Source: Massalongia carnosa (taxonomy: Eukaryota). From it: DNA of 64,000 nucleotides. How positions within the stretch are numbered: the stretch's first letter is position 1; every line of letters starts with the position of its first letter. The stretch is taken from assembly GCA_965645245.1 (NCBI GenBank), contig OZ287088.1, forward strand, positions 372,001 through 436,000, in the 5' to 3' direction. Of this stretch, positions 9,501 through 57,902 are shown one piece after another. Under the pieces are notes generated by a model. It did not search any database and was not told the DNA's origin. It saw only the letters and a program-made list of their open reading frames with translations. The position numbers and the translations under genes were made by a program.

Positions 9501-11583
9501 CTCCCCCAATTGTCTGAGGTATGTCCCCCCCGCTAGCAATGTCGGTATGTACAATTTCACCGATGTTGGTGGCCTTTAGTCGTTGAATTCTAACTGGATT
9601 TCGATGTTGTTTTCCTATTGCACATGATGGACACACGTTGATTTTAGGTTCTGCTGATTCACATTTATCAGCCTTAATTGCATCAATGCCAGTGGAGAGT
9701 TTAGCTAAAATCTTGACGTCCTTCATGTTGAGATGGGATAATCGTCGGTGCCACACCGTCCACGAGGCATTGTCGGAGGATTTGTAAGAGGTATGTAAGG
9801 TCTTTGATTGGTCCAGGTCGATCGAGTGTGTGGATCCAGAAGAGTGACGAGTACCAGTAAGACAGATTTCTCCGTCAGGGGCAAAACATTCAGTTCTTCC
9901 TTTTCCTACTCGAAATTCGAATCCTTTCGACTCAATAACACCTACAGAAAACAGATTGTATGCTGACTCGGGTACGTGATGGACATCCTTTAGGCATACA
10001 GCCTTTGATTCACCATCCACGTCTAGATACAGGGTAACAGAACCTTTTCCTTTAATAATCATATCAGTGGAGTTGGCCGTTTTTATGACCTTCCCTCTAA
10101 TTGATTGATAGTCATCAAATAGGTCTTTGTCATAGCAAATATGGACATCGGAAGCCGAGTCTATCCACCAGGTACGATCCTTATTTTGAGACTTATGGAC
10201 GTTAGTAAAGAGGCTCTTGGTTATCATTGATCTTGGAACGAAGGCTGATTTGGACGAGGGATTCGATTCCTTCTTGTCCTTATCCTCCTTCCTATCCTCC
10301 TTCTTATTCTTCACCAAGTTTTCCTTAGATGGGGCCGGTTTCCAGTTATCGGGCCGGTTGGTTGCATTCAGATAATAGCAATTGGTCTTGTTGTGGCCAG
10401 GACCGTCACAGTATTCACATTTTGACGAATTGGTATTTTTCTCCTTTTTCCCCTTTTTGCTCTTCTCTTCTTCTTCTTTCTTTTCCTTCCTGTTGAACTT
10501 AGCCGTCAGTGCCTTGTTGGATTCCTCTAAGTTATGTTGACGGTTATCATGATCTATTAAGGCCATCATCACCTCGTCAACGTCTAACTCCCTCATGTTT
10601 GCTCTTGCAGCCTCTACGAGACTGAAGATATAAGGTTCCAGGTCCGGTTTAAGACCAAGTCGGAACGAGGTAGAGAGAACCCAGTCTGGTAACTTGTGAC
10701 CGAGTTGTATCAACTGGGAGTGGGCCTTCTTTAGGTGTTCGGCGTACTCCTGAATGGAATTGAAATCTGATTGGCTAGCACGAAGTTGAAGGAAGGCCAG
10801 GTCTCTAGTGGCCAGACTTGTTGCTTTGTAATGCTTTTCCAGTACATCCCACATCTCTTTTGGGTCTTCCAGGCCCTCTATATGGACTCGAGGGCCTGTA
10901 CCACAGTTCAAGTATATCTTGGTAGCTGCTTTTACCCTTCGCTTGTCCCATTTCTTCTGTTTGTCCTCGAAGGCCTCCAGTTTGTCCTCCCACCGCTCAA
11001 TAGTGCTTTGTGTCACTACTATGGCCGGGGTGGTGACTCCATCCTCTATCTTAGAAGGGGAGTCCACTGGTCGAGGTGGAGCATTAAGGGGTCGGAATTC
11101 TTCCCCTTTAACTATATCCCACAGTTCGTCTAAACTGAGGAGGCCTTTCACCTCCTCCTTCCATACATTGTAGTTCTTTTCACCTACCAACGGCTTTATC
11201 TGATAAGTTTCTAGTCCCATTGTTGAAGACTAAGCACCGACAGCTGAGGAGGTTCTTTGAGGCTTGATAATTGGCCTACAAGGACGAGGACTAGATATGT
11301 AGGAAGAGAAGAGATTATATAGCACTTCCCTAGCGTCTAGCCGGGCTCATAACCCTTTGATTACAGGAGGCTTAGTGGCAGACTGAAGGCTTTGAAAGGT
11401 GATTATATTAATGCTATCTAGAAGGAAGGAAGTTCGAGGGGTCCTCCCGAGGACCTTATTGACCAGATTGTTTGCTATAGCATCTCCTTAACCACCTTAC
11501 CGCATTAGGATTCAGGGGGCCGGCTTATTGTAAGGCCGGCCTCCGATAAGGCTAGGTGGACCGTCGCTATTGTCAATCCAAAG
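6529..11583 (-). mobile_element. Ty1/Copia element A, full length, one frameshift
   Basis: LTRs 6529-6761 and 11355-11583 (about 2 substitutions plus a 4-bp indel); TSD AATGG at 6524-6528 and 11584-11588; PBS GGTTATGAGCCC at 11343-11354; purine tract next to the 3' LTR. Confidence 0.95.
6809..11220 (-). CDS. Copia-A gag-pol polyprotein (ORFs 8725-11220 and 6809-8422 in different frames; frameshift near 8725)
   Basis: CCHC knuckle CEYCDGPGHNKTNC; WWIDSAS protease; HRRLSH..CPSC and DDE integrase; YVDD RT; KHIDIQYH and ADGL RNase H. Confidence 0.9.
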
Positions 11584-11626
11584 AATGGAACTTCCAGTAC
11601 ATAGTGGAAGACTTTATCATCGTACA

Positions 11627-11894
11627 TATGAAATATAAATTCACTTTGTAGGTATAGTAGTATGATTGTCATTGAAGGTGATTATCTATGTGGGCTATTT
11701 GTCTGCTTTATATAGCAGTCACAAAACAGTCACATCTAGGAGGTCAGACCTTGTCCCCTGACGGTCAGACCTTGTCCCCCTGACGGTCAGACCTTGTCTC
11801 CCATCTCTGCTTGTTTAGGCACTTTGCAAGGCACCTCCCGAGGCTCATGATGGATGCCCATGATGATGGTGGCCTCATCATCTAACATCCAACA
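11627..11894 (-). mobile_element. Solo LTR of Copia-B family
   Basis: Reverse-complement copy of the 12559-12870 LTR with three internal repeats instead of five; TSD GTACA at 11622-11626 and 11895-11899. Confidence 0.93.
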
Positions 11895-12194
11895 GTACAT
11901 TGGGTCAAAGAAACCTACGTCTGCTGCATTCTACCTTGGTTGCCCTGGTGCAGGTCCATCGACCTCTGGCTGGGGGCCTTGGGGACCAGGTGGACCACGC
12001 GGTCCACGCATTGGTGGGGTTTGCCGGTAGTAATCTGCTACTGCAGCGGCTATCATAGCTTGGAGGGCAGCGTTATCCATGATAACGGCGGGCTGATTGA
12101 TATGACTTCTGGAACTTTCTGGTCTTCCGAACTCCACGTCGGCCGAGGTCTGTCTTGTGTTTGGGGCAGTGAGAAGACTGTTAAACGGTAAGGC

Positions 12195-12483
12195 TACCAT
12201 CGGTTAGATGGTCAGACTACTACCACTAGTATAGGCATCCATCGTGAGTCCCACGGGTGCCTGCCAGGCATCTATAGGAGGTGCCTAATAGGCAGTTCGG
12301 GAGGTGCCTTGCAAAGTGCCTAAAAAAGCAGATATGGGGGGACAAGGTCTGACCGTTTAGGCTCCTAGATGTGACTATTTTGTGACTCCTATATAAAGCA
12401 GACTTATAGCCCACATAGATAATTACCTTCAATGACAATCATGCTACTACATGTATACCTACAAAGTGAATTTATATTTCATA
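12195..12483 (+). mobile_element. Diverged solo LTR related to Copia-B
   Basis: Shares GAGGTGCCTTGCAAAGTGCCTAAA...GTGAATTTATATTTCATA; flanks AAGGC/AAGAC (TSD with one mismatch). Confidence 0.75.
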
Positions 12484-12558: not shown

Positions 12559-15500
12559 TGTTGGATGTTAGATGATGAGGCCACCATCATCATGGGCATC
12601 CATCATGAGCCTCGGGAGGTGCCTTGCAAAGTGCCTAAACAAGCAGAGATTGGAGACAAGGTCTGACCGTCAGGGGGACAAGGTCTGACCGTCAGGGGAC
12701 AAGGTCTGACCGTCAGGAGGACAAGGTCTGACCGTTAGGGGGACAAGGTCTGACCTCCTAGATGTGACTGTTTTGTGACTGCTATATAAAGCAGACAAAT
12801 AGCCCACATAGATAATCACCTTCAATGACAATCATGCTACTATACCTACAAAGTGAATTTATATTTCATAGGTTATGAGCCCGGCTCACTTCTACTACGT
12901 TTGAATAAGCCCCTACATTGATTGTCAAACAAACTCACCTCCACCTCTTCCACCTACCTCATTCTATATTATATATATATTCCTTTTCATATCCCACTTC
13001 AAAATCCAAGCAACCAAAGGGACCCTCTTTTTCCCCCGCTCAGTAACCCCTACTCCTAAGCACGATGGCCAAAGGGGAGAGTCTATACACATTCCCAAAG
13101 CTAATGGGGAGTGGAAACTATAAGAAATGGTCCAGAGACATGGCCTTCGCCCTGCAGGAGGCGGAACTTTGGAACTACGTGACTGGTGCTCGGAAAATGC
13201 CTCGAGAAATCCCCCCTCCACCTCAAAAAGCTGATGAGACACCCCCGGAGGAAACAGAGGAACAGCTAGAAAAGCGGGACAAACGGGACCTTGAACGCCT
13301 AGAGTTCTCGGAGAAACAAAGGAGAGTAGTTGGTAAAATAGGCAAGATGTGCACAGATGACGTGCAACAGGAATTCTTGTCGATGAGAGACCTAGCCAGT
13401 GGGGGCATCTGGGACCCGAAGGACCTTTGGGAACACCTGAAAACCCGATACACCCTCAGAAATTGGAGTGCGAAATGGAGCACATTCAACCGGCTGGAGG
13501 AGATAAACTATGAAAAATGCAAGACCATCGAGGAGTATGGTAGCCTAGTCAGGGATATCAAGGCAGAAATCACCGACATGGCCCTGACCGTTGAGCACAT
13601 TGTAGTGCTCAAACTCCTCAATGGACTCGGCAGTTCATTCAACACCTACCTGACCATCCTGAACGAACAAGCTCGGCGGGAGGACAAATTCCCGGCGTTG
13701 GATGACTTACTAAAAAACCTGGAGGACGAGGAGGCTCGTATGCGCCAGGACCCTGTCGCCGTAGCTAACATGCTGAAGGCAAAGGGGAAGAAGCACCCCA
13801 CCGAACAGGGTAAGACCAAATGCAAATGCTGTGGTTATAATCACTCCGGAAAATGCAGGCATAGCAACGCTACATGTAGGAAGTGTAGTAAGATTGGCCA
13901 TCTGGAACGCGTTTGTGAAAGCAAAGAAGGTAATGAAACCTCAAACCCCCAAATAGTTTGTACAATAAGGGAATGTTCCGGGAAAAGAACCCAGGAAACA
14001 CCGCTTATTTGTATGGCGGGTCTGTGCCGGGGTCCCAAGAATGCCCACGATCTATTGATCGACTCCGGTGCCACCGCGCACATTATATGCAATAAAGATC
14101 TCTTTCAAGAAGGGACCTTTCGGAGCGAAAATAGCTGTTTAGAAACAGGTTCCGGAGAGGTGTTATCGACAGAGGGGAAAGGCTCTCTACTCGTATCACT
14201 GGACAATGGAAATGGAGGTGTAACGGACCTCATTTTGACCAACGTCCTTTTCGCCCCCGACCTAAAATTCAACCTCATCAGCACAATACAACTCGGCAAA
14301 AAGGGCATATCTACGTACCTGATGGCGGATGACAAGCCCGCTCAACTGGTGCATAAAGGAAAGGTGGTTGGACTGGCCAAAACAATAAATAATCAGTATG
14401 TTTTGCAGACAACCACTATTAGCCCTACCGAAGCACGGGCCCTCACCACCACAAACGGTACAAAGGCCCCTATCCAAACATGGCACGAACGACTCGGCCA
14501 TCTCAGCTACCCAAACCTCCTAAAATTAAATCATTTAGCCAATGGAGTCACCATCGAAGGACCCATACCAGAAGAAGTATGCGGCTCATGCATGATGGGA
14601 AGACAACAGCGGAAAATAAATCGCACTCCACGAACCCGAGCAACAGAATTTCTCGGAATAGTGCATAGCGACTTAGGGGGACCATTTCCACTGACAAGGT
14701 TCGGTGAACGTTTTTATGCTACGATGAAAGACGACTTCTCCGGGGTAGTGTGGATCTACCTGCTGAAAACAAAGGGTCAAACCTTCGAATGTTTTAAGCA
14801 GTTCAAGACATGGATAGAAAATCAATCGGGAAAGAAAATAAAGAGACTCCGAGCTGATGGAGGAGGGGAGTACACCAGTGGTGACTTCCAGGAATTCCTA
14901 AAGAGTGAAGGCATCCAGTGGGAGGCCCGGGCACCAAATGTGCCAGAACAGAATGGGAAGGCCGAAAGGCAAAATTATACCCTCATGGTCCCCACTCGGT
15001 CCATGATGAAGGCTAAAAAGCTCCCAAAGTCCCTTTGGGGGGAGGTCCTGAAGACGGCCGGGTACATCAAGAATAGAAGTCCCGGGGTTGACGAGGTCAC
15101 TCCATATGAACGCATGAATAATGCGAAACCCTTCCTCGGCCACATGAGAACGGTCGGGGCAAGGACATGGGTACATATCCCAAAAGAGAAGCGCAAGAAG
15201 CTGGACGATAGGTCCTGGCAGGGGATATTTGTTGGGTATGAAGGAAACAATCAGTATCGAATTTACGATCCTCTCACTGGAAAAGTCCATGTTTGTCGCG
15301 ATATCACCGTCGACGAAGGCAATATATATGATTCCAAGGATAAAAAGGCCTGGGACATAGCCGACATTCCATGGGAGGGAGACGATGATGCTTTGTTTGA
15401 TGACCCAGATGATTTTGTTGATGAAAACAAAAGTCATAATCCGCCATCTTCGTTGTCTCCGAAAACTCCGAGCTCTGAAATATCGAGAAGTTCGGAAATT

Positions 15501-17701
15501 CAAAATGAAACGGCCCCACCAACACCACGGATAGTGCTACATCCAATGGGAGTAAATGCTTCGGGGGAAGGCCGAGAAGAGGAGAATGGGGGGGAGAGTG
15601 ACTCCGATGAAGTGGAGGACATTCCTCGCCAGCCCATCGAACCTCGAAGATCTGGACGAATAAGGGTCCCCAGTCAAAGAGCACTGGAGAACATTCGTCC
15701 CAGCATCAACACCGTATTCAGTTCAAACCAGGTCCCGAAATCCCATGAGCACATGGTGCGGGTGCTAGCAACCCTGGCAGGAGGCGAGGACAATGAGGGC
15801 CTCGATGATCCTTTGACACTGAAAGAGGCTATGTCCTCACCCCACTGGGATCAATGGAGAAAGGCCATGGAGACCGAGTATCAATCGCTAGTGGAGAATG
15901 AAACTTGGACACTAGAAAGGGCACCGACTGATCGAAAGGTGATCACCGGTCGCTGGGTGTTCAAAATAAAGAAAGACAGAGATGGGAAAGTACTGAAGTA
16001 CAAAGCGAGATGGGTAGTTCATGGCTATAAACAAAAGGAAGGCCTGGACTACCTCGACACCTTTGCCACAGTGGTAAAACCAGTCTCTTATAAGGCATTG
16101 ATGGGAATCAGTGTAAAGAAGGGACTGTCCATTCATCACATGGATGTGGTGACTGCTTTCCTGTATGGCTTCCTAGATGAAGCCATATATGTCATACAAC
16201 CCACCTTGTTCGAAAAAGGGGAGAACAAGGTCTGCTTACTACGAAAGGCCCTATATGGCCTAAAACAATCCCCTCGTGTATGGTACCAGACCCTGCAGGA
16301 TTTTCTGCAAAAGATGGGGTTTAAACGAACAGATTCGGATCATGGAGTCTTTGTATCGGACGATATCTTTATAGCGATTTACGTTGACGACCTTCTCATC
16401 TTCGGAAAAGACACTTCGAAATTGCAGCAATTGCAACACGAATTGAAGTCCCGTTTCCGCATGACGGACTTGGGAGAAGTCTCCCATTATCTGGGAATCG
16501 AAGTCGATGTCAACATCGAAAAATCGGTTATAACTCTTCGACAAACAACTTACCTGAAGAAGGTGCTGCAGCGATTTAATATGGTCGACTGCAGGCCCAT
16601 TTCCACCCCCATGGACCCCGGTGCCGGAAACACACTCATGCCGTCGGATGACCAGGCCGATAAGGAAACAATTACCTGGTACCAGTCGGTGGTGGGCTCG
16701 CTGATGTGGCCAGCCATGCATACACGCCCCGACATCGCTTATGCAGTGGGAGTACTGAGTCGATATTGTTCGAACCCAGGCCCATTACACTGCAAATATC
16801 TTCAGCGCATTATGCGCTATATATCCAGTACCCTAAATACAGGCCTCGTGTTTAGAAAAGACACCGAGGATGACATTGTGGGATACTCGGACTCCGATTA
16901 TGCTGGAACGAAAGATGGGAGAAAATCGACCGGGGCCTATACGTTTTTGTTAGCAGGCGCCCCAATTTCCCACTGTTCCAAGCTACAACCTACCGTCGCC
17001 CTATCCACCTGCGAGGCCGAATATATGGCTCTGACGGAAGCAGCTAAAGAGGCCATTTGGTGCGCGCGATTTCTGGCCGAGTTAGGATATCGGAAGAAGG
17101 ACACCCCTGTCCTACTTCGAGGGGACAATCAAGGGTCAATTGCATTGGCTGAAAACCCCGAATTCCACCGTCGAACCAAGCACATCGAAATCAAATGGCA
17201 TTGGATCAGGGAGGTGGTTGAATTGGGAAGGGTAAGCATCAAGTTTATCCCTACCACAGAGATGGTGGCAGATGGGCTTACAAAGCCACTGGCCGCTAAA
17301 CCCTTTGAGGACTTTAAGTCAATGCTTGGCATGGGCTAAACCCAAAGAGGCAAAAATATCCGGAGAGCCTCAAGATGGCTGAATGGGAGTGTTGGATGTT
17401 AGATGATGAGGCCACCATCATCATGGGCATCCATCATGAGCCTCGGGAGGTGCCTTGCAAAGTGCCTAAACAAGCAGAGATTGGAGACAAGGTCTGACCG
17501 TCAGGGGGACAAGGTCTGACCGTCAGGGGACAAGGTCTGACCGTCAGGAGGACAAGGTCTGACCGTTAGGGGGACAAGGTCTGACCTCCTAGATGTGACT
17601 GTTTTGTGACTGCTATATAAAGCAGACAAATAGCCCACATAGATAATCACCTTCAATGACAATCATGCTACTATACCTACAAAGTGAATTTATATTTCAT
17701 A
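12559..17701 (+). mobile_element. Ty1/Copia element B, intact and young
   Basis: 312-bp LTRs 12559-12870 and 17390-17701 that look identical by eye; TSD CCACC; PBS GGTTATGAGCCC at 12871-12882; purine tract before 17390. Confidence 0.97.
13065..17339 (+). CDS. Copia-B gag-pol polyprotein, 1424 aa, uninterrupted
   Basis: Zn knuckles, LIDSGAT protease, HHCC plus DDE integrase, YVDD RT, TKHIEIKWH/ADGLTK RNase H. Confidence 0.97.
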   Translation: MAKGESLYTFPKLMGSGNYKKWSRDMAFALQEAELWNYVTGARKMPREIPPPPQKADETPPEETEEQLEKRDKRDLERLEFSEKQRRVVGKIGKMCTDDVQQEFLSMRDLASGGIWDPKDLWEHLKTRYTLRNWSAKWSTFNRLEEINYEKCKTIEEYGSLVRDIKAEITDMALTVEHIVVLKLLNGLGSSFNTYLTILNEQARREDKFPALDDLLKNLEDEEARMRQDPVAVANMLKAKGKKHPTEQGKTKCKCCGYNHSGKCRHSNATCRKCSKIGHLERVCESKEGNETSNPQIVCTIRECSGKRTQETPLICMAGLCRGPKNAHDLLIDSGATAHIICNKDLFQEGTFRSENSCLETGSGEVLSTEGKGSLLVSLDNGNGGVTDLILTNVLFAPDLKFNLISTIQLGKKGISTYLMADDKPAQLVHKGKVVGLAKTINNQYVLQTTTISPTEARALTTTNGTKAPIQTWHERLGHLSYPNLLKLNHLANGVTIEGPIPEEVCGSCMMGRQQRKINRTPRTRATEFLGIVHSDLGGPFPLTRFGERFYATMKDDFSGVVWIYLLKTKGQTFECFKQFKTWIENQSGKKIKRLRADGGGEYTSGDFQEFLKSEGIQWEARAPNVPEQNGKAERQNYTLMVPTRSMMKAKKLPKSLWGEVLKTAGYIKNRSPGVDEVTPYERMNNAKPFLGHMRTVGARTWVHIPKEKRKKLDDRSWQGIFVGYEGNNQYRIYDPLTGKVHVCRDITVDEGNIYDSKDKKAWDIADIPWEGDDDALFDDPDDFVDENKSHNPPSSLSPKTPSSEISRSSEIQNETAPPTPRIVLHPMGVNASGEGREEENGGESDSDEVEDIPRQPIEPRRSGRIRVPSQRALENIRPSINTVFSSNQVPKSHEHMVRVLATLAGGEDNEGLDDPLTLKEAMSSPHWDQWRKAMETEYQSLVENETWTLERAPTDRKVITGRWVFKIKKDRDGKVLKYKARWVVHGYKQKEGLDYLDTFATVVKPVSYKALMGISVKKGLSIHHMDVVTAFLYGFLDEAIYVIQPTLFEKGENKVCLLRKALYGLKQSPRVWYQTLQDFLQKMGFKRTDSDHGVFVSDDIFIAIYVDDLLIFGKDTSKLQQLQHELKSRFRMTDLGEVSHYLGIEVDVNIEKSVITLRQTTYLKKVLQRFNMVDCRPISTPMDPGAGNTLMPSDDQADKETITWYQSVVGSLMWPAMHTRPDIAYAVGVLSRYCSNPGPLHCKYLQRIMRYISSTLNTGLVFRKDTEDDIVGYSDSDYAGTKDGRKSTGAYTFLLAGAPISHCSKLQPTVALSTCEAEYMALTEAAKEAIWCARFLAELGYRKKDTPVLLRGDNQGSIALAENPEFHRRTKHIEIKWHWIREVVELGRVSIKFIPTTEMVADGLTKPLAAKPFEDFKSMLGMG

Positions 17702-25440: not shown

Positions 25441-28400
25441 GTGAATACAACCACTATCTGTCCATACTTCAGTACAACTGCAACAAATCCAAGAACACTG
25501 TCATGGCGGACTTCCTTCGCAGGGAGGAAAGCATGAAATACGGCATCCTGGCCATCCAGGAACCCTGGGCGGGGAACCCATATCAACACACCACGCACAA
25601 TCCGGTCAAAAATGTTTTTCACCTTCTCTATCCCCCCGAAACAGGAGAACAAGAGCTCCCTCCGAGAGTATGCATGTTCGTCAACAAAGACATAGCAAGC
25701 GCCTCTTGGAAGGTAACATTCCACTCTCCCGATCTGATGACTTTGCACTTGGAATTTCCTAGCGAAACCCAGCGAGTCATCAATATCCATAACATCTACA
25801 ATCCCTCCCCCTCTCAGGGAAACTACAGCACCTTGCTAGACCTAAGCAAGGCGCTAGAGGTGGAGGGAGAACACATAGTGGTAGGGGACTTCAATCTTCA
25901 CCATCCCCTATGGACTGGCGAAGACTACCATCATCAACATCCGGAGGCAGACCAACTACTGGAGATTCTCGATCAAAGCGAGCTAGAACTTCTGCTCCCC
26001 CCTGGCACCATAACATACGATCATAGATCAGCGCAGAGCACGATAGACTTAACGTTCGCGACCCCCGCAGTAGCTTCAGCCGTACTCATGTGCGATGTGA
26101 GAAGAGAGTTGGATAGTGACTCAGATCACTACCCTATTGGCACAGCATTCGATATCACCACGGTTAAGAGGGACATAAGGTCCTCTCGCATGTGGTCTAG
26201 TCTAAGACTGATAGGAAAAAGCTACTAGACACGCTGACAGACAAGCTCCCGGCACCTAGGAGCGTGAGCACAGTTCAAGAACTCGACATTTGGCCCATGA
26301 GTTAGTTGAAGCTATCCAGCACGCAGTGGAGCCAGCAGTCCCACTTTCTAGAGGGTGCAATCATTCAAAACCTGGCTTTACTCCGGAATGCAAAGAGGCA
26401 GTCACCCTATGCAGACGTCTCAGGCGCAAGCATAAGGAAACGCGCTCTCTGGAAGACTGGGAAGCCTACCGAGAGGCGAGAAACAGCAAAAACAAAATCG
26501 TACAAAAAGCTCTCAAGACAACACATAGGGACAGGGTAGAGGAGGCCACCAGCACCCCAGATGGTCTCTTGAAGCTTGCGAAATGGGCTAAGAACAGGTC
26601 GACCCCATTCCAAGCCTTCACCCCAACCCTAATGAAAAGCGATGGCTCCAAAGTGACGGAGGCCTCGGGCAAGGCTGAACTGCTTCGCAGATAGTTTTTT
26701 CCTATCCCGGACGCCACCAATCTTGAAGACATCGCCGATTATCACTATCCAGAGCCAATCCAATTTGCTCCCATCTTAGCTCGGGAAATAACTAAAGCCA
26801 TCACAAAGGCAACACCATTCTCGGCCCCAGGCCCCAACGGACTGCCTAATAGAATCCTCAGAGATGTGTTACCGCTCATCATGCCCACACTTGTAGCTCT
26901 GTATAACGCCAGCTGGGAACTGGGTCATCACCCCAATGCTTTCAGAGATTCCACCACGGTGGTTTTTAGAAAACCAGCTAAGGCCGACTATAGTTTGCCG
27001 AATTCATACAGACCCATAGCCTTGCTCAACACTTTAGGTAAGACTATGGAGAAGATCATTCCAACCAGAATTAATCACGCGGTGGAGACCGAGAGCCTAC
27101 TCCCCAGACTCCATATAGGCGGCAGGCGAGCTAGATCACCCGAACTCGCCCTCCATCTGCTCCTAGAGGCCATCCACGCAGCCTGGCTTAACAACGAAGT
27201 GGCCACAGTGCTCATGCTGGACATCTCGGGTGCTTACGATAACGTATCCCACAAAAGACTACTGCACAACCTACGGAAGAGAACGATAGGCGGCAACATA
27301 GCTAAATGGATCGAAAGCTTCTTTCAGGAAAGGAAAACGATCATCGCCATGCCCGACTACACCTCGCAACCATTCACCACGAACTTTGGAGTCCCTCAGG
27401 GATCCCCTATATCTCCTATTCTTTATCTCTTCTACAACGCCGACCTTATGGAAGAGGAAGGGCCCAAAAAGATGAACTTGGGCTATGTCGATGACATATC
27501 CAAACTAATTATTGGAACTTCAGCACAACAGAACTGTAGAAATCTCGAAGCCTCGTTCATGACGAGGGAGCAGAAATGGGCGGACACATGCCTCCAAATT
27601 TGCCCCCGCCATATTCCAGCTCTTGCACTTTATCAAAGGACCCTCAGAGACGGATTTGAACCCCCCGGAGAGAGCTATCTCCCTAGCGGGCAAAACCATC
27701 AAGCCACAGCATACCGCCACCTACCTGGGCGCCACATTCGACGACAAGCTCAAATGGCACGCCCATTTAAGGAAACTGGAAGCCAAAACCTCAAAGAGAC
27801 TGGGGGCCCTAGGCAGCCTTGCGGGCTCCACATGGGGCACCAGTCTTGCGAGCCTTCGAAGAATCTATCAAGCCACCATACTACCGCAACTCACCTTTGG
27901 ATGCTCTGCATGGTATGTTCCCGAGGGCGGATACGGGACTATCACGCAAGCAACCGCCGTGCTCAAAGCCGTCAGATCTATTCAGCGACGGGCGGCACTG
28001 ATCATTTCAGGGGCATTTAGAACAACCTCGGGCCCGGCCTTGGATATGGAGCTTCACCTCCTGCCTGGCCGGCAACGCATGGAGCAGGCAGTGAACGAGT
28101 CACTACTGCGCATACGTTCAAGCCCCCTTTACGCCATAATACGTGAGATCCGCGCCTGGACAAGCCAAGCGGACTCCCACTATCGATACTGGAGCCCTCT
28201 AGCTAAGCTAGAGTCCCGCTTAATGACTTCGGGGAAATGCCCTCAACCTTGGCGGTTAGAGGTCATTCTTCCATTCATAGTGGAACCATGGTGGTCTCCC
28301 CCCGAAACGCACATTGCTTCCAGTAAAGAGGAAGCAATCAAAGAGCATGACAAGATGACATCAGAGCCGAACCAAATAGTCATATACACGGATGGGAGTG

Positions 28401-32204: not shown

Positions 32205-33598
32205 TTCAGCAGTGTAATTTATCGATAATCAGCTACTAGTGAAACGCAGCCACCTTGTGTTTGCTATTCTAGTGTTTGGGCAAAGTCCTGACCCTAGGGT
32301 GTGGCATGACACCGTTCGTGCGCCGTCCGCGCCGGGTAGGCTACGGGGTCCATGGACGCTGTAGATGCGAACCCTGGGGTCAAGACATACTCCCAAAACC
32401 CCAAAACCGTGTTTCTCGCAGAGGAATGGTTTAGATCGTGCGAAGTCTCGCGATGGTGTGGGTGCGGTGTGCATGTGGTGAGGATTCGGGTAAGGTGCAG
32501 GACATGTGGTATTCAGCCTCTTTGATGTCGTCTCGAGGCATTCCATATGATTGAGGGGTTTGTGTGTATGTATAATCGGTAGGCGTCTGATTTCCAGCGT
32601 CCTAGCAGCTTGATTTCATCCTCGTTTAGGCCGGCGTTTTTCGCGGAGGTGGCGGCCCCTCTCCGAAAGGAGTGACCTGAATAATTTCCCTGATATCCCT
32701 TGTCTTTTAGAACGTCTCGTAATGCTTTAGTGACAAAGTTTCGCGTGAAAGCCTTTTTTGGATAGAACATAGGTTGGCTGAGATCTATTGGAAAACGTTC
32801 GATCAGAATTCTCAATGATCGGACTGGGCAGGCTTCGTCATTGACGGCCGCTACTGTAACTGTGACCCCTTGTCGGAAGGGATCCGTCTTGGAGGCGGGA
32901 AGGGTCAGCTGTAATCTGTCCTCGCTCAGTAATAGTGAACCTCTGGTTATGTGCCATTGGGCAAAGTCGTCTCCCCACATGTTTTCTTCCCATGTGAATT
33001 TTCCGATACGTAAGAAGGCCGCGAAGGCTAAACAGAAGGCCGCGTGCAGTATGGCTCCCCTTAAGGAATTTTGATCAAAAGTACTAACGATCTCTTCTAG
33101 GATGGATCGGGTTATAGGACGACGTTCTCGCGGCTGGGCGGCGGGACGGAGCCGGCGTATGCCTGCCACGATTCTCTCTAGTTGGAGATGATGGAAAATA
33201 TCTAATTCGGCCTTCGACGCGCCTCGGTCGACTTGATAAGATCTGATGCCGCTTAAGTATTGATGATGATGATGTATTCATACTCCGATATGTCACCGGC
33301 CGTAGGCCGGCCCATGCGGGCAAAGCTATCTAAGTTATATTACATGGAAAACCTTTTTCAGGTGTAAAAACCATATCCCTTGATACAGTCGACTGCAAAA
33401 GGTTGGTCGCGACCCTGCATTTGGGACCACACATCACGCGAAAATGGCAAAATGCCGGCAAAAATCCGAAAAACTACCCTCACCGCCTACATGCCAATGA
33501 AGTCGTACTACTGGTCAGTATTGAAGCGACTTGTAGATTAGTATATGTAGATGCCATTCCCCGTCTTTTTTCCCTCTCTCCTCTGCCATTTTCCCAAA

Positions 33599-34643
33599 AT
33601 GCCCCCCCCTCTCAGTGAGACCCTTCGTGAGACAATCACGCTTCGTTTTGTACGAGGTGACAGCAATAAGACAATTGAATCTGTCACTGGTGTTGGCATC
33701 AGACAGATTCAACGAATGAGACGTAATTGGACTCATTTTGGAGATGTGGTTCTACCTCAATTGTCAATTGGACATCGCCCTCGTAAACTCAGTCAATTTC
33801 ATGAGATTGAACTTCTGAAATATCTGGAGCAACGTCCGCATGCCTATCTGGACGAAATGTGCTGGTTCATTTGGGACGAATTTCAGATCTCTGCAGATGA
33901 GACCACCGTTGGTCGTGCCCTAAAAAGGCTTGGTTGGAATCGAAAGAAGGTGATCAAACAAGCAGCTCAAAGAAATCAAGGCCTTCGAGATGGATGGATG
34001 CAGAGATTCGGAGAATGGACTGCAGAGCAATTGATCTTTTTGGACGAAAGTGCAGCTTGCGAAAGAACCGGTTATTTCCTATCTCATCTTTCATCCCATC
34101 TTCGTCATTTTTCTGACTTTCTGACTAGGTGATCGACGATACGGATGGGCTCAGGCAGGCGTCCCTCCAATCATGATTCAGGATTTGAAAAGGTCAAAGA
34201 GATGGAGCATTCTTCCTGCATTTACCGTCGATGGATATATAGCTTGGGAGGTGCATCAGGGCTCCATAACTGCCGAAATTTTCAACGACTTCGTTCGAAA
34301 TCAGGTTCTTCCTCAGACGACTGCCAATGGAGGTCCTAGATCTGTTTTAGTACTAGATAATGCCAGCATTCATTGGAATCAGGAGCTTATTCAGATGTGC
34401 GAGACAGCCAACGTCACCTTGGCACGACTACCTCCTTATTCTCCATATTTCAATCCAATTGAAACGTCGTTTGCATTGCTAAAGGCATGGATTCGACGGA
34501 ATGGAGATTTGAGTCTTTCGTACACGGAGGAGTATGGGGGATTCGGACAATTTCTTCGGGATGCAGTCAAAGATCTGAGAATGGGAGGCCCGGGAACTTT
34601 ATTTAGATTGGCTGGCATTCAGTATCCCACCATTTCAATCTGA
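33599..34643 (+). CDS. DD34E transposase with one intron (34071-34128)
   Basis: HTH region; FLDES; splicing GT..CTGAC..AG restores ERTG-DRRYGW in frame; VLDNASIH..PPYSPYFNPIE gives 34 residues between D and E. Confidence 0.92.
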
Positions 34644-34658
34644 TTAGATACATAGTAT

Positions 34659-36836
34659 CTAATCCTCATCTTCATCTTCGGCATAATCGTATTCTAGACT
34701 ATGCGTCTCATCTTCCTCAATTGTATCTCTCACTCCAGATCCTACCTCCCCGCCCCCGTCCACCTCCCCATCCTCCATCCCCTTATCCACCCGAGTGACC
34801 GCCTGAGTGACCGCCTGAGTGGCCATTTGCGATGTCGGTAAATGGCGTTGACGCCGAGGGGGAGGCGGGGGCATTTGCTGAGATATCTGTCGAGACATTT
34901 GTCGAGACATTTGCAAAGGCATTTGCCGAGACATTTCTCTTCCAAATTTACTGACGTCTCGCGCCAGTTGAATCCCGATTCCCGGAGGAATTCCTAGCTC
35001 CTGCCAGAACGTCTGATGCTCGATGCCTTTCAAGGATTGAACGGTCATCAGATCGTACCCACCTTCCATCAATCGATCGCAGGCGTTGGTGAGCACTCCT
35101 TTCAAATGAGGCTTCATTTGAACAAGCCAACTGACATAGTCTTCCAGATCTTCTTCCACTGGACTGCTGCGGGCGACGGAGGGGAGAGGGAGAAATCGAC
35201 TCACGCTTCGACTGCTTCTGGATGATCTCGAATCTCTCCAATCCAACGGCGTTTCCTCAAGGGCTCGTCTCGAGTCAGGTAATGTAGAAGGAGCATACTG
35301 AGAAGGATAAAATGCCGGGGGAGGAAATGCCGAGTGAGGAAATGCCGAGGGGAATGCCGAGGGAAATGTCGAGGGGAATGCCAATGACGAGGGGGGAAAT
35401 GTCGAGTGGGGGATTTGGTACGAGTGGTGTTGATACATGGGATGTTGATAAATGGAATGCCCACCTCCAAAGGGCATTTCCTGAGACGAGGTTTCCTGTT
35501 TTGGAGATGATGATTCAGTCTTTTTCTTACCTTTATTCAGGGAGAATAAATTCTCTCTGATCTTCGGTGGAGGTGTTCGAGAATCAATGTCTGAAATTCC
35601 ATCATCTAGTGCTTTATTCCAGGTCACGAAATGAGCACTGTTGAGAGGATAATGCTGATTCTTCGTCTCATCATTCCAACAGTACTGTCCGAAATTCCTA
35701 CATGCGCGTTTTTCACAGAGATGCAGACTTTGCAATTCGGACATTCTTTCGGCCGTCATGCCTTGCAACATGGCTCGTTCCTCCATCTCTTTTTGCAGCT
35801 TCATGGTCGCGGTTCCCAATTTCTTGGTGGCGACAGCTGTGGCAGCAGCAATAGGATCATCGGGAGGAATGACGCCATCTTTGGTACGACTGAAGTTGAA
35901 AATAAGATCAACCGCGAAGCTTTTCTTTCGAATGCTGCTGTCTTCTAAATGAATTAGAACCTCCTCAATGGGCTGCCAGGATTCGATCAACATGAGAGCT
36001 GATTTTTCATGCGGTTTGATTCCATTCCATAACACGGTCGCTTTGATATCGACCAAATGACAAGCATACATTTTGGAATTCGCATACGTCTCGGCTTTCA
36101 AACTCATGTCCCCGGTGTAGCTTCTCAAAAAGAATCTTTTCGACGTAGTTGAATTGACTTCGTATGGAATCACCGTCTCGAAAACGACGTGCTTCTCATA
36201 CGACATCTTCACATTTAGTAGATATTTGATTACCATCGGAGGCAGTGGCGAAGGGGATAAACGGGAGGGTTCTTTTCTTCTTGGTTTTCTAGACTTCTTA
36301 CTGACAATCGAGTTACTAGGCACATTGAGATCTTCGACATCATCTTCGGCATCATCTTCGGAATCATCTTCGGCATCATCTTCGGCATCATCTTCGGCAT
36401 CTACAGCTTTCATCGCGTTCTCCTTTCTCCACTGACCCTGCCACCTCTGCTTCTCGTCTTCATCCGTCCAGTCGTCGGAGGAATCCTCCGTAATGACAAG
36501 GGGACTATAATAATTCGATTCGAAAGTCTTTGACTGCTGAGGCTGGACCTTTGACTTGGGAGGGGCCTTTGGCTTGGGAGGGACCTTTGGCTTGGGAGGG
36601 GCCTTTGGCTTGAGGGGGGCCTTTGGCTTGAAGGGGGGCTTTGACTTGAGGGGAGGCTTTGGCTTGGGAGGGGCCGACGTCGATTCCGGCGAGGCTTCAT
36701 CGATGCCGGCGGCGACAATGGCTCTGGCTCTCGGCCCTCCCAAAGTCAGTTTGATTCTCTTACCTTTGAAAGGCTCTTTTCCAGCCGGGGGGGGGCCGGA
36801 ATTTGATCTTTTTGCTCTCGGTTCACGAAGTTTCAT
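34659..36836 (-). CDS. Transposon-borne accessory protein, about 725 aa, function unknown
   Basis: Uninterrupted ORF; PKPKAP-type repeats, DDAE repeats, C-x4-C-x6-C-x8-H motif, possible SAM-like C-terminal helical domain. Confidence 0.8.
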   Translation of the reverse strand: MKLREPRAKRSNSGPPPAGKEPFKGKRIKLTLGGPRARAIVAAGIDEASPESTSAPPKPKPPLKSKPPFKPKAPLKPKAPPKPKVPPKPKAPPKSKVQPQQSKTFESNYYSPLVITEDSSDDWTDEDEKQRWQGQWRKENAMKAVDAEDDAEDDAEDDSEDDAEDDVEDLNVPSNSIVSKKSRKPRRKEPSRLSPSPLPPMVIKYLLNVKMSYEKHVVFETVIPYEVNSTTSKRFFLRSYTGDMSLKAETYANSKMYACHLVDIKATVLWNGIKPHEKSALMLIESWQPIEEVLIHLEDSSIRKKSFAVDLIFNFSRTKDGVIPPDDPIAAATAVATKKLGTATMKLQKEMEERAMLQGMTAERMSELQSLHLCEKRACRNFGQYCWNDETKNQHYPLNSAHFVTWNKALDDGISDIDSRTPPPKIRENLFSLNKGKKKTESSSPKQETSSQEMPFGGGHSIYQHPMYQHHSYQIPHSTFPPSSLAFPSTFPSAFPSAFPHSAFPPPAFYPSQYAPSTLPDSRRALEETPLDWRDSRSSRSSRSVSRFLPLPSVARSSPVEEDLEDYVSWLVQMKPHLKGVLTNACDRLMEGGYDLMTVQSLKGIEHQTFWQELGIPPGIGIQLARDVSKFGREMSRQMPLQMSRQMSRQISQQMPPPPPRRQRHLPTSQMATQAVTQAVTRVDKGMEDGEVDGGGEVGSGVRDTIEEDETHSLEYDYAEDEDED

Positions 36837-37180
36837 ATCTGAGATAAAAAATGGGGAATGGCAGAGGGGGAAGGGAAAAAAGACGGGGAATGGCATCTAC
36901 ATATACTAATCTACAAATCGCTTCAATACTGACCAGTAGTACGACTTCATTGGCATGTAGGCGGTGAGGGTAGTTTTCAGATTTTTGCCGGCATTTTGCC
37001 ATTTTCGCATAAATATTTGATGTGTGGTCCCAAATTCAGGGTCGCGACCAACCTTTTGCAGTCGACTGTACCTGTCCGATGTGACACCGGGTTGACGTCG
37101 GACAGGAGACGCAGAGCGAAAATCATGTGAGAACTGTGACGCCTTGTGAGATAAGAAGGAAAAGAGAAGTGAAACTACTG

Positions 37181-38390
37181 TTAATTGTACAATAGTGTAG
37201 ATGGCAGTGAGAATTGGGTCAGTAGACCTGTTTTCATTAGCCAAGTAGTTAATATCTTTAGACTTTTTGATGTTTCGGTCAGCTGTTGATAGTTGTTCGT
37301 GCCAGCGGCGCAAAACCTCTGTTCTCTATTGTCAATAAGTCTACAGAACATAATTACGTGTTCTGGAGTTTGTCTGTGCCAGCCACATGGGCAGGCCGGT
37401 GAGGTGACGGCGGGGACCCGTCGCTGGTAGAGGAAGTCAGCTAGACCGATCTTACCGGTGCGGATCTGTGTTGTCAGGGCGCTTTCTGCCTTTTTTAGCA
37501 GCGTGTGTATTTTTAGTCGTTTTTTGCTCAGTGGGACTGATTGCGCTATGGAGGGTTCGGTGACGCGATTTTGATATGCGCTCCACGAGTCGTTCCAGAC
37601 TTTCAGCTGTCGTGCTTTAATTGTCTGCATTTGTTTTTGACGAGCCAACGCTGCTACGGAGACTTCGCGGAGATGCGCTGGGGAGGGGTCGGACCATGGT
37701 GGGTGTGCTTTGGGTGGTTGAACGATTTTTGCGTCGATCAGTAGGTTTTTGGCCCAGGTGTGCTTCAGCTCTCCCGGAGTGGGTTTTTGAAGGCGTTTGC
37801 GACCTGCCTTGCCTTGAAGTTTGTTAACTATTTTGCTGCATGCAGAAGAAATGACCTTCGATTGACCTCCGGCTCGGAGTCGATGTCTGGCCTGCGCCTG
37901 TAGCGTGTCGAGGTGTACATCTATGGGTGCTATGTATGTCTCTGCTTCAAGAACTGGAATGGGAGTGGCTTTAAAGGCACCGGCTATGGTGCGAAGGCAG
38001 TTGTTTTGCATAACGGAGAGCTTGCTCGTTGACGTTTTTGACTTTTTGACTTCTTTGGGCATGTGCCATACGGTTGACCCGTATGTCATGACCGGACGCA
38101 CTACGGCGCTGTAAACTTGCCTTGCTTTGGTGAAGGTGGCACCCCAAGTCGATGTGGAGATTTTTGTCAATGCCATGGATTATTTAACCATTTTCTTTTG
38201 CGTTTTGCGAACGTGCGGTCCCCATTTCAATTTGGTGTCAATTTGCAAGCCTAAGACTCTAATGTCCGTTTTTGGTTCACTTTCGGTGCTTGCAATGTTG
38301 ATAGATGCAGCCATATTGAATCTTTTAGGATTTCTAGACAAGTGAATGAGTTCGTACTTCGTCGGAGCGAATAGAGATCCGTGTCGGGCT
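37181..38390 (-). pseudogene. LINE-2 ORF2 C-terminal fragment (RT end plus Zn motif, no RNase H)
   Basis: FAPTKYELIH, LGLQIDTKLKWGPH, STWG, QIRTGKIGL, CPCG..EHVIMFC. Confidence 0.88.
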
Positions 38391-55731: not shown

Positions 55732-56147
55732 GATTGTAACAAATCTTGCGTATGTCAAAATACACTGCTTTTGTTTTCTTTTCGAGCGCTTGATGCTGCA
55801 AGATACGACAATAAAGACACACCAGTCAAGTATATTATCAAGATTTGGGTTAAATAATGTTATGTGAGTTCTCTCATATTGTCGTCCTCGCTCGCAGAGT
55901 CTTCATCTGCTTGAGATTGCGCCCAGTTTCCTCTTCGTATCATTACTCTGTGCACCTGTTCCACCCGATCCAAAAACGAACTACAGTCAGATCGGGTTAT
56001 AAGAAACTGCTGATTAAGAAACCTCGGCTAGTAAGAAACTCGGACGAAAAGACCGGTTTTTTTTTTGGTGAGGAATAAGAAACCTCGCTCTATTAGAAAG
56101 TTTCTTAACTTTCTTTAAAAATTTTGCGGTGGTTTCTTATAGTAAAT

Positions 56148-57902
56148 ATGACTTCTCCTTCGACTTCTTTGAGATATAATAGTCAAAATTCGGAGATTCC
56201 ATCTCCTTCATCTCGAAATCCTCGAAAACGTCCTACATCCCCGCTTTCTCCCAGAGAGAGAAGCAGAAAAAAGCGTGACGCCTTTACCGACGATCAACGA
56301 CGAGCATTACGACAGCGTTACCAAGATCCTGCTGTATCTGGAGATGACAAGAAATACGAAAAACTGGCAGTTTGGTTTGACAATCTTTACCGCCATAAAA
56401 TTGACAAAGGACAAGTTTCCAAAATCCTCTCACATAAATGGGCTCATCTGGATACATCTCACGCATTGCTACGCCCGAATCTGAAGAAAACTCGAACGGC
56501 ACATTGGCCTGAATTAGAAACGGCCTTATTTGAGTGGCAACAGCGCATGCAACACAAAAGAGCGCCTTTGTCGGGCGATTTGTTAAGAGAAATGGCCTTG
56601 AAATTTTGGAAACGATTGCCTCTGTACCGTAATGAACCACCTCCCAGGTTCTCTATTGGATGGCTGGATTCTTTCAAAAGAAGATACAAGATTACAAAAC
56701 ATAGACAACACGGCGAGCTCGGTTCCGTCAAGCGTGTGGAGGTTGAAGAAGAGCTAGAAGTAATACGAGTACAGCTATTATCATACGATCAGGAAGATAT
56801 CTACAACATGGATGAAACTGCGTTATTTTGGAAGGCTACACCCAGTACTACATTGGCTACGGAACAGCTCCTAGGCGGCAAGGTGGAAAAAGCGAGAATT
56901 ACTGCAAATTTCTGTTGCAATGCTACTGGAACTCACAAGCTTCCCATATGGTTCATTGGGACGGCCAAAAATCCGCGTGCTTTTGGTTCACAGGGTGTTC
57001 ACGCTTGTAACCTGCATATGGTATGGCGCAGTAATAGCAGAGCTTGGATGTCGGGCGATATATTTTGGGAGTATTTACGCTGGTTTAATGGCAACGTAAG
57101 TCGTAAGGTTGTATTGTTAATTGACAATTTTTCAGCCCATCAAAGCGGCTGGGATATCATAATTGCTGAAGGTGGTTTATCCAATGTTAGCGTTATATTT
57201 CTACCAGCCAATGCTACCAGCTTATGCCAGCCACTGGATCAGGGTATTATAGGCGCTTTCAAGGTTCATTATAGACAACGCTGGCTAGAGTACATGGCCT
57301 CCGAATATGACGCAGATAGGGAGCCGTTAAAAACCATCAACGTACTGATGGCAATACGTTGGTGCGTAGCTGCCTGGAATTACGGTGTTACTCAGTTAAC
57401 TATCTCTAATTGTTGGCTGAAATCCCGTGTAATCGGGGCAAAATATGGGCCAATGACTCTAGAAGAGGCGGAGAAATATGGCTATCTCAATGAGACTCAG
57501 GCGCAAGAGCAAGAAACGGAGCAACGATTACAGATACAAGCTACAATACGGCGTTTGGAAGACCGTGGTCATATACAAAGCGCCATGCGTATTGGCGAAT
57601 TTCTGAACCCTGTTGAAGAGGTGGTAGAGGATACCGAAGAGGATTTGGAGGATCACATCGTTGCTATATATGGTAGCCATGAAAGAGAATACGAGACGGA
57701 GGAGGAGGAGGTCATTGTATCACGTGTCCAAAACAAGGACGCTCTACGAGCTCTTGAAACGTTACGGTTATATGAGGAGCAACGAGAGGTCGGTGACGAT
57801 GATTTGATACGTCGTCTGAATCGTAAGGAGTGGGATATCAGGACCTCAATGGCGGTTAGCTCTAGGCAAGCTGTAATGACGGATTTCTTTGCCATTAGGT
57901 AG
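56148..57902 (+). CDS. CENP-B/pogo-type transposase, intact ORF
   Basis: HTH (FSIGWLDSFKRRY), NMDETAL, IDNFSAH, QPLDQGII. Confidence 0.93.
   Translation: MTSPSTSLRYNSQNSEIPSPSSRNPRKRPTSPLSPRERSRKKRDAFTDDQRRALRQRYQDPAVSGDDKKYEKLAVWFDNLYRHKIDKGQVSKILSHKWAHLDTSHALLRPNLKKTRTAHWPELETALFEWQQRMQHKRAPLSGDLLREMALKFWKRLPLYRNEPPPRFSIGWLDSFKRRYKITKHRQHGELGSVKRVEVEEELEVIRVQLLSYDQEDIYNMDETALFWKATPSTTLATEQLLGGKVEKARITANFCCNATGTHKLPIWFIGTAKNPRAFGSQGVHACNLHMVWRSNSRAWMSGDIFWEYLRWFNGNVSRKVVLLIDNFSAHQSGWDIIIAEGGLSNVSVIFLPANATSLCQPLDQGIIGAFKVHYRQRWLEYMASEYDADREPLKTINVLMAIRWCVAAWNYGVTQLTISNCWLKSRVIGAKYGPMTLEEAEKYGYLNETQAQEQETEQRLQIQATIRRLEDRGHIQSAMRIGEFLNPVEEVVEDTEEDLEDHIVAIYGSHEREYETEEEEVIVSRVQNKDALRALETLRLYEEQREVGDDDLIRRLNRKEWDIRTSMAVSSRQAVMTDFFAIR

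Follow-up and report, generated by a model that had tools for sequence, protein, structure and literature searches.

What does a cut-and-paste transposon gain from a second large gene? Tc1/mariner elements are the textbook minimal transposons, with one gene between two inverted ends, and can function in nearly all cells; this simplicity accounts both for their wide spread and for their use in gene transfer. The question is raised by an element found in 64,000 nucleotides of DNA from Massalongia carnosa (GenBank assembly GCA_965645245.1, contig OZ287088.1, positions 372,001 to 436,000 of the forward strand), a stretch which we call here the window and in whose coordinates positions are given. 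The element covers 33386-37068 (3683 bp, or 33384-37070 with the TA on either side) and carries, next to a transposase gene, a convergent second open reading frame (ORF2) of 725 amino acids (aa). A preliminary description of this DNA, made from its sequence, had proposed that ORF2 is a dedicated factor of the element and not captured host DNA. The best overall explanation, to which we give a probability of about 0.6, is that this is a Tc1-like fungal element belonging to a clade of two-gene elements, in which ORF2 is kept as a conserved partner gene. Such a clade, having retained a second large gene while its transposase diverged deeply, would show that the minimal design is not universal, and its compact elements of 3-3.7 kb would offer a two-gene system in which to ask what a cut-and-paste element gains from a helper, be it in complex assembly, target choice, escape from fungal genome defence, or self-restraint.

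The element had been described as a 3.7-kb unit flanked by TA and bounded by near-identical terminal inverted repeats of about 210 bp, and its limits are borne out by the repeat arms, by their end-to-end alignment, and by element-free contigs. The inverted ends are made of three collinear arm pairs, 33384-33436/37018-37070 (53 nt, 98% identity), 33438-33472/36974-37008 (35 nt, 97%), and 33461-33590/36857-36986 (130 nt, 94%), which in an end-to-end alignment amount to about 207 bp with 95% identity and one 8-bp indel. At both ends of the element TA is followed by CAGTCGAC, with CAGT as the terminal letters, and there are exactly two occurrences of the 31-nt terminal word in the window, where chance would give 0.

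Mobility was assessed by aligning the public contigs of four runs to the element plus 1 kb per side. In X2 and X3, the runs of two organisms, three contigs each join 33383 straight to 37069 in paralogous, element-free copies of the surrounding repeat, thus omitting 3685 nt, that is, the element and one TA, and leaving a single TA. These junctions fix the ends and the TA duplication independently of the inverted repeats. Similar joins, shifted by a few bases or differing in a few other letters, are found in diverged repeat copies of X2, X6, and X7. The flanks (33144-33383 and 37071 onward) are repeat, with a summed depth about 10 times that of the element. The depth of the X2 contigs is even across the transposase and ORF2, at about 3000-3300, and the versions collapsed in those contigs therefore carry both genes. 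Element DNA was matched in the public runs of a lichen metagenome and of four further organisms; no RNA run was among the 11 runs listed. Protein records represent several slightly different versions of the element, 94-99% identical, some of them frameshifted and one with its stop codon changed to Y; contigs of 3.77, 2.30, and 1.69 Mb carry these versions, which may be different copies or strains. As a separate observation, runs X6 and X7 (organisms C and D) hold pieces of the element of about 100% identity, with 0-1 differences and a depth of 2-4 (on window 32384-38070), and their own copies of the surrounding repeat diverge by 11-16%. These pieces reflect either sample carry-over or a recent transfer between species, and were not used as evidence.

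The first gene would encode, upon removal of a predicted intron, a transposase of 328 aa, and the predicted splice yields ...ACERTGDRRYGW..., in agreement with ...NERTGDRKYGW in its relatives. In Pfam searches, exon 1 matched HTH_33 (E 6.9e-06, 26 bits against a cut-off of 25) and, under its cut-off, HTH_32 (E 5.1e-04), whereas the DDE_3 core in exon 2 was recovered with E 5.6e-25 (88.3 bits against a cut-off of 28.6). The spacing between the second D and the catalytic E, counted on the translation, is 34 residues (LDNASIH ... NPIE). The intact spliced DD34E transposase that had been reported earlier is thus recovered, with the word intact referring to its open frame. TA duplication, inverted ends, DDE_3 and helix-turn-helix domains, and the 34-residue spacing are all features of Tc1-like DD34E elements, and we place this one as a Tc1-like DD34E member of the IS630/Tc1/mariner superfamily, which breaks only the one-gene rule of the group by carrying a conserved second gene.

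This second gene is an open frame on the opposite strand, as had been noted, with its start just inside the right inverted end and its stop codon 15 bp from that of the transposase. At most 10-20 bp separate the start of each gene from the inner edge of the adjoining inverted end, which is the probable promoter of that gene. Both frames also stay open upstream into the ends (33551-33598 and 36837-36896), where each meets an in-frame ATG, so that either protein could begin with a shared, end-encoded peptide, MPFPVFFP; the relatives of the transposase begin at the inner ATG, and a near-identical protein record, P0005, extends still further through the inverted end. The features of the element, of the related loci discussed below, and of the neighbourhood are collected in the following table.

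Coordinates of the two-gene element, of related metagenome loci (in their own numbering), and of neighbouring features in the window.
Feature	Position	Strand	Basis or remark
Left TA target-site duplication	33384-33385		TA ahead of CAGTCGAC; single TA at the 33383 to 37069 join in element-free contigs
Left terminal inverted repeat, about 205 bp	33386-33590	+	Inverted-repeat arms; end-to-end alignment
Transposase exon 1 (helix-turn-helix, first catalytic D)	33599-34070	+	Pfam HTH_33; start matches relatives P0130 and P0132
Transposase intron, 58 nt, predicted spliceosomal	34071-34128	+	GT..AG, two CTGAC boxes
Transposase exon 2 (DDE_3 core, second D and E), stop TGA	34129-34643	+	Pfam DDE_3
Junction palindrome, perfect 10 bp, 3-nt loop	34642-34664		Overlaps both stop codons
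ORF2 (second gene), 725 aa, convergent with transposase	36836-34659	-	Open frame, no internal stop
ORF2 SAM-like five-helix domain, residues about 564-638, GIPPGIGIQLA loop	34923-35147	-	AlphaFold2 model
ORF2 long helix and C-C-C-H knuckle, residues 328-440	35517-35855	-	Model secondary structure; invariant columns
ORF2 beta-grasp domain, residues about 200-325, PB1-like topology	35862-36239	-	AlphaFold2 model
ORF2 low-complexity N-terminal part	36318-36693	-	Direct-repeat families D1, D2
Right terminal inverted repeat, about 212 bp	36857-37068	-	Inverted-repeat arms; end-to-end alignment
Right TA target-site duplication	37069-37070		Flank sequence and element-free contigs
Locus L004, transposase	27-1007		Stops 33 bp apart
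Locus L004, ORF2 relative, open 510 aa	1041-2573	-	Hidden Markov model (HMM) E 3.9e-25
Locus L002, complete 3065-bp element	9259-12323		Ends 144 nt, 99% alike; TA before CAGCGG
Locus L035, complete 3304-bp element			Ends 122 nt, 91% alike; GC 38%
Locus L003, degraded			GC 38%; 81% identical to P0031, 74% to P0070
Loci L020 and L015			One AT-rich sub-family carrying an ORF2 relative
Copia-type polyprotein	8725-11220	-	
Copia-type polyprotein	13065-17339	+	
Open frame, 846 aa	19335-21875	-	No Pfam family
RVT_1 ORF	26866-28020		
ORF, 218 aa	32513-33169	-	Sub-threshold Phage_integrase, E 4.4e-04, 20.5 bits against cut-off 27.1; R...HxxR...Y-like C-terminus
ORF, 331 aa	37181-38176	-	No Pfam match; ends with C-x-C...H-x4-C stretch
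Pogo/Fot1-like DDE_1 transposase with Tc5 and ABP1 helix-turn-helix parts	56124-57902		
Mutator-like (MULE) transposase	58497-60125		

Whether ORF2 belongs to the element was judged from metagenome loci fetched through the transposase. A scan with the transposase alignment only returned at least 596 pattern matches, at least 531 of them confirmed as relatives; a scan with a two-sequence alignment of ORF2 (A5) gave 394 pattern matches, none of which was confirmed. The pairing counts cover the best 80 transposase loci, on whose six-frame translations the ORF2 HMMs were run. Six of the 80 (L002, L003, L004, L015, L020, and L035) contain an ORF2 relative, in each case on the strand opposite the transposase and directly downstream of it. 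Eleven loci combine a transposase identity of 40% or more with 400 bp or more of downstream sequence, and the six carriers are among these, whereas none of the 69 loci below 40% identity gave a match; most of the latter are GC-rich, bacterial-looking, and often have little downstream sequence. The tail-to-tail arrangement of homologues with DD34E transposases, which had been named as a check, is seen in these six loci, two of which (L002 and L035) are complete elements inside their own inverted ends; the remaining five close loci show no second gene.

The six carriers are in different states of preservation. In L002, the ATG codon of the transposase (9407) and that of the ORF2 relative (12163) are each found at the inner edge of an end, with 22 bp between the stops; the ORF2 relative is found in four open pieces, which are probably separated by introns. 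In L035 the relative is visible only with stops read through (E 1.7e-20), and is therefore a pseudogene. The two proteins to which the degraded locus L003 is compared in the table, P0031 and P0070, had been found by a protein search with ORF2 alone. In L020 the two stops are 94 bp apart.

The age of this pairing was approached through a transposase tree built on the catalytic half of the protein. Its 39 rows comprise the window, 14 proteins, and 24 of the 80 loci, and L015, L020, and L045 fill less than half of the columns. All ORF2 carriers fall inside one clade of 29 rows (support 90/95), which also includes transposases of Zopfia, Alternaria, Cladophialophora, Gymnopilus, and Candolleomyces and therefore spans Ascomycota and Basidiomycota. 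Within it, carriers appear in at least four sub-lineages: the window with L003 (100/94); L004 with L024 and L007 (100/99); L002 alone; and L020 and L015 with L010 (100/97). L035 is placed apart. The arrangement recurs in elements whose transposases are just 42-48% identical to that of the window. Read from the tree, the simplest history would be an old two-gene ancestor followed by later losses or decay, with repeated gain of ORF2 in separate lineages as a conceivable alternative.

One pair of carriers, L020 and L015, is close enough (84-91% DNA identity) to permit a count of nonsynonymous (dN) and synonymous (dS) substitutions. For the C-terminal part of ORF2, dN is 0.08 and dS 0.411 (ratio 0.19, 123 codons); for the transposase, dN is 0.033 and dS 0.426 (ratio 0.08, 103 codons). 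The dS values being equal, both genes have diverged for an equal time, and both are shown to be under purifying selection in this pair. ORF2 is called a dedicated gene of the element because six loci fetched with the transposase carry it, spread over several sub-lineages, and because of this equal dS. The proposal that it is not captured host DNA is thereby supported, and dN/dS, whose computation had been named as a check, is well below 1 for both genes in this one pair of elements.

ORF2 has no Pfam family. A full HMMER search over 1.84 billion representatives brought up 126 relatives with E<=0.001, of which 45 pass E<=1e-10 and 7 pass E<=1e-30. Roughly 17 of the relatives have long sequences (430-806 aa), and most others are short fragments. 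No Pfam family was found in 25 of the 26 relatives scanned, and the remaining one has a DUF7924 piece at its start. A word-indexed protein search with the ORF2 profile A1 retrieved just five proteins, all close, and a protein atlas gave Basidiomycota clusters (0.90-0.91) and a SAM cluster (0.79), which serve as leads only. Two faint Pfam matches in ORF2 (P0001), 2L_N_poxvirus (E 0.0047, 17.2 bits against a cut-off of 27) and COPI_C (E 0.19), were dismissed as noise. ORF2 thus represents a family of at least 126 clusters without a Pfam entry and with two confidently modelled domains, and fungal gene predictions of this family could be annotated as transposon genes, rather than as host hypothetical proteins.

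The protein comprises low-complexity arms and folded parts. Residues 1-195 are basic, then rich in proline/lysine repeats, and then in acidic repeats. Of the roughly eight PKPKAP-type repeats and the DDAE repeats in the preliminary description, both types are real, with seven copies counted for the 18-nt PKPKAP-type (36527-36693); the acidic DDAE-type repeats, of 12 nt, occupy 36318-36413, and five further 12-nt units are found near the C-terminus. An in-frame 12-nt deletion at 36363 (run X3; records P0004 and P0005) drops one DDAE unit, and the number of acidic repeats therefore differs between versions. Amid otherwise unalignable arms (alignment A1, columns ~120-135), many long relatives share a basic motif, (K/R)L(R/K/T)L-x-G/P-P-(K/R), represented in ORF2 by KIKLTLGGPRA at residues 27-37, which may be a short linear binding motif.

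The first folded part was modelled by AlphaFold2 with a mean predicted local distance difference test (pLDDT) of 89.1 over residues 195-450. It begins with a beta-grasp domain of order beta-beta-alpha-beta-beta-alpha-beta, whose best match in a structural comparison of the ORF2 models with 48,161 solved chains is the PB1 complex 4mjs_A (Z 7.0, root-mean-square deviation (rmsd) 3.1, 85/88 residues), followed by other PB1 domains at Z 5.4-6.0, with streptokinase and ubiquitin-like domains in a similar range. No PB1 profile match was found by Pfam in ORF2 at E<=1, nor in 26 relatives at E<=0.01. The bacterial superantigens in the top Foldseek rows for this model (template-modelling (TM) score 0.16-0.21, rmsd 8-12) were set aside as a chance beta-grasp likeness. 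Residues 328-371 form a single long helix in the model, and residues 372-440 present the C374-x4-C379-x6-C386-x8-H395 knuckle on two short hairpins, followed by helices. The presence of this C-x4-C-x6-C-x8-H motif had been pointed out before; in the 17 long relatives, three of its residues (C374, C386, and H395) are invariant, together with W406, P422, S558, and P559, and the fourth, C379, is conserved in at least 90%, as are W287, S557, A585, and G619.

After a proline/serine/phenylalanine-rich stretch (residues ~440-555), the second folded part was modelled over residues 545-665 with a mean pLDDT of 76.4, rising to 89-93 over the folded core (model residues 21-90). Its five helices resemble the SAM domains of tankyrase (5jti_A; Z 6.5, rmsd 2.4, 62/63 residues), Sans (Z 6.5), and SARM1 (Z 6.1), as well as the hairpin-helix domains of RAD51-paralogue N-termini and NusA repeats (Z 5.3-5.8). 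The first Foldseek row for this model is the Scm SAM domain 1pk3_B (TM 0.60, rmsd 2.7, E 1.9), neither ORF2 model having a Foldseek match in the PDB at E<=0.001. The earlier reading of this segment as SAM-like is supported at the level of a likeness of fold; in sequence, SAM_1 and SAM_2 gave no Pfam match in ORF2 at E<=1, the ORF2 profile reached the SAM domains of MAP3K15 and ANKS3 among solved chains at E 0.12 and 0.44, respectively, and ORF2 as a single sequence found nothing below E 0.25 among solved structures. The GIPPGIGIQLA loop (residues 615-625), which includes G619, presumably resembles a helix-hairpin-helix motif, that is, a hydrophobic-G-hydrophobic-G hairpin between two helices. 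The tail consists of MSRQ repeats and an acidic end.

What this protein does can be proposed only tentatively. At somewhat less than even odds, we suggest that the ORF2 product is a nuclear, self-associating, DNA- or chromatin-binding helper of the transposase, acting in complex assembly or target choice. The guess of binding to DNA or chromatin and of self-association derives from the basic and acidic arms, the PB1-like module, the zinc knuckle, and the SAM-like module with its hairpin loop. The basic stretches could serve as nuclear signals; once in the nucleus, the protein would stick to DNA or chromatin and to itself, and would work with the transposase either by assisting complex assembly at the long inverted ends or by choosing or holding the target. 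Complex prediction was applied in one test, with the transposase exons as two separate chains and ORF2 residues 195-665 as partner. The predicted contact reached 0.55 (0.57, 0.55, and 0.55 in the three runs) against 0.00 for the best control, with the verdict of weak support; the pLDDT of the partner was 55-56, and the runs agreed in at least 10% of contacts. Of the solved complexes, 51 of 78 reach the mark applied, as do 2 of 108 mismatched pairs; at 0.60 or below, it is reached by only 5 of the 78 and by all four passing mismatches (of 180). The calibration used single-chain pairs, unlike this three-chain job. We take the predicted contact as a small push towards a partnership of ORF2 with the transposase. 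A bolder version, which we consider doubtful, is that an old and widespread clade of fungal Tc1-like elements depends on its own polymerising DNA- or chromatin-binding accessory protein, which would contact the transposase and bridge the ends or steer insertion into safe places, such as other repeats. Were this true, it would be the first Tc1/mariner accessory-protein system outside ciliates, and would found a protein family that is still unnamed.

Several observations weigh against a conserved partner gene of this kind. Among the 11 close loci, L001, L005, L007, L024, and L045 show no second gene. The closest of the 80, L001 (52% transposase identity), has 915 bp of downstream sequence with an unrelated ORF instead (1008-1316 of L001 1-1430), and is either a one-gene relative or a truncated element; L005 is degraded, L007 and L024 have 441 and 585 bp downstream, respectively, and in the tree L045 falls outside the fungal clade, among the GC-rich loci of low identity. 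ORF2 is thus dispensable, lost, or undetected in some lineages. The transposase retains its own helix-turn-helix, and a helper for end recognition is not obviously needed. The complex score of 0.55 lies in a band where passes are more often wrong than right. As for the domains, Pfam gave no PB1, SAM, or hairpin-helix match in ORF2 at E<=1, profile searches of solved structures were best at E 0.016, to Lon protease, and the fold matches are middling, with best Z scores of 7-8 being typical of models without a true match. Since such scores are usual without kinship and no profile link exists, the two modelled domains are described here as PB1-like and SAM-like folds and not as family members.

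The window copy itself adds to these points, since its best-supported differences from the X2/X3 contigs are mostly amino-acid changes (seven of seven in the transposase and five of seven in ORF2), which looks like neutral decay. At transposase residues 264, 311, and 314 (positions 34446, 34588, and 34597) the window has Y, G, and T, where the X2/X3 contigs and the relatives have D, D, and N; D264 belongs to the conserved YSPDxNPIE block, just ahead of the catalytic E. Judging from these substitutions, the window copy is open but probably slightly decayed, and its transposase may be impaired despite the open frame.

Other roles for ORF2 have to be weighed against that of a transposase helper. 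The protein might instead counter host silencing, in the manner of the plant protein VANC, keeping the DNA or chromatin of the element free of repressive marks or RNA silencing and taking no part in cut-and-paste itself. Its conservation with the element under purifying selection would fit, as would the beta-grasp and SAM-like folds and charged disordered arms, which are typical of chromatin-associated scaffolds; the window copy has other transposons all around it, a setting in which silencing is to be expected, and the heavy degradation of several relatives (L003 and L035, GC 38%) agrees with a strong host defence. No similarity to a known anti-silencing protein emerged, no comparison with VANC itself having been made, and none of these results favours the anti-silencing or target-tethering roles named in the preliminary description. 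If the weak contact predicted with the transposase points anywhere, it is away from anti-silencing, a role that we regard as unlikely. That same contact would suit a brake on the element, in which the protein titrates the transposase or the ends, or convergent transcription produces double-stranded RNA. The tail-to-tail arrangement is kept with very short spacers, and since the stops lie 15 bp apart in the window, 22 bp in L002, and 33 bp in L004, the two messages of these three elements must overlap at their 3' ends, which could feed RNA silencing. The palindrome across both stops in the window (-10.2 kcal/mol, z -4.84, with 0 of 200 shuffles as good) would add to the case, but no counterpart was seen at the matching place in L002 or L004, which also led us to reject it as a conserved terminator; the spacer of L020 is much longer, and a brake by transcription alone has no need for 500-800 conserved residues, folded domains, and a dN/dS of 0.19. 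A brake is, on balance, distinctly unlikely.

ORF2 could also be a passenger, a host gene captured once and carried without a role for the element. The close transposase relatives without it (L001, L005, L007, and L024) are compatible with this view, and the genomic context is known for few of the 126 ORF2 relatives. The passenger view is nevertheless hard to reconcile with a location, a strand, and a start point (where an end stops on its inner side) that stay the same next to transposases only 42-48% identical to that of the window, in at least four sub-lineages, or with the equal dS and purifying selection of both genes; moreover, many of the relatives are short fragments, as for decaying transposon genes, and 25 of the 26 scanned have no Pfam family. 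We therefore hold a passenger to be highly improbable. To the idea that the two genes are two elements, one nested in the other, we give almost no credence: the window is indeed full of nested transposons, but this element has just one set of inverted ends, with neither ends nor duplications in its interior, the two-gene unit recurs inside single end pairs in L002 and L035, and the element-free sites omit all 3685 nt at once. The reading of ORF2 as a conserved partner gene of a two-gene Tc1-like clade is the one we retain.

Compared with known systems, the element agrees with classical Tc1-like DD34E transposons in its TA duplication, terminal CAGT, inverted ends, helix-turn-helix and DDE_3 domains, and 34-residue spacing. 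Unlike these, which contain a transposase only, it has a convergent second gene, as do six related loci; its ends are long (about 207 bp), and ORF2 makes up more than half of it. PIF/Harbinger cut-and-paste elements encode a transposase and a Myb-like DNA-binding protein, so that there too the second gene is a non-catalytic partner; however, they belong to another transposase superfamily. Here the transposase keeps its own DNA-binding domain, and Pfam found no Myb/SANT match in ORF2 at E<=1. The Mutator-like VANDAL elements of plants carry the anti-silencing protein VANC, which is likewise an extra element-encoded protein of no general family, although in another superfamily and another kingdom. 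With proteins built of PB1 and SAM modules, ORF2 shares a first folded domain of PB1/ubiquitin-like order and a last one that is a five-helix bundle, but it lacks a sequence-profile match, its Z scores are only 6.5-7.0, and the SAM-like domain bears an equal resemblance to the RAD51-paralogue and NusA hairpin-helix domains.

Closer to the Tc1/mariner group, the statement in the preliminary description that its members normally encode only a transposase needs to be amended for ciliates, as the available text of PMC7325037 describes TBE elements as carrying a small ORF and a zinc-finger protein besides the transposase, and Tec elements as having three ORFs. Like the present element, TBE and Tec combine a DD34E transposase with further ORFs of their own, including the zinc-finger protein of TBE (PMC7325037); compared by description, they differ in having three ORFs, in their host kingdom, in their tie to programmed DNA elimination, and in the site-specific recombinase of Tec. 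In yeast, Tc1-OP1 is reported, in the portion of the source available, as a Tc1 transposase fused to an extra 'domainX' (PMC9977792); it is also a fungal Tc1 relative with extra coding capacity, but its extra part belongs to the same protein as the transposase, whereas ORF2 is a gene of its own on the opposite strand. In a survey that covered the cut-and-paste elements of 1,726 fungal genomes, the accessible part does not mention a second ORF in the Tc1/mariner group (PMC5751038). We found no two-gene fungal Tc1/mariner element in the full-text literature, a search that lay outside Repbase and Dfam, where a prior entry is possible. The idea that the mollusc TLEWI, Tc1-like elements with introns, carry an ORF2 was rejected, the term being absent from the available text of 10.1101/656579.

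Transposons of several kinds make the whole window a block of mobile DNA. A repeat that spans 33144-33383 and 37071-38176 surrounds the element and, to judge from loose contig ends, stops near 33261-33281. Within this repeat, the terminal C-x-C...H-x4-C stretch of the 331-aa ORF resembles the zinc-binding tails of reverse transcriptases, and this ORF may be the 3' region of an element of the long interspersed (LINE-like) type. On the other side, the 218-aa ORF may be the remnant of a Crypton-like tyrosine recombinase.

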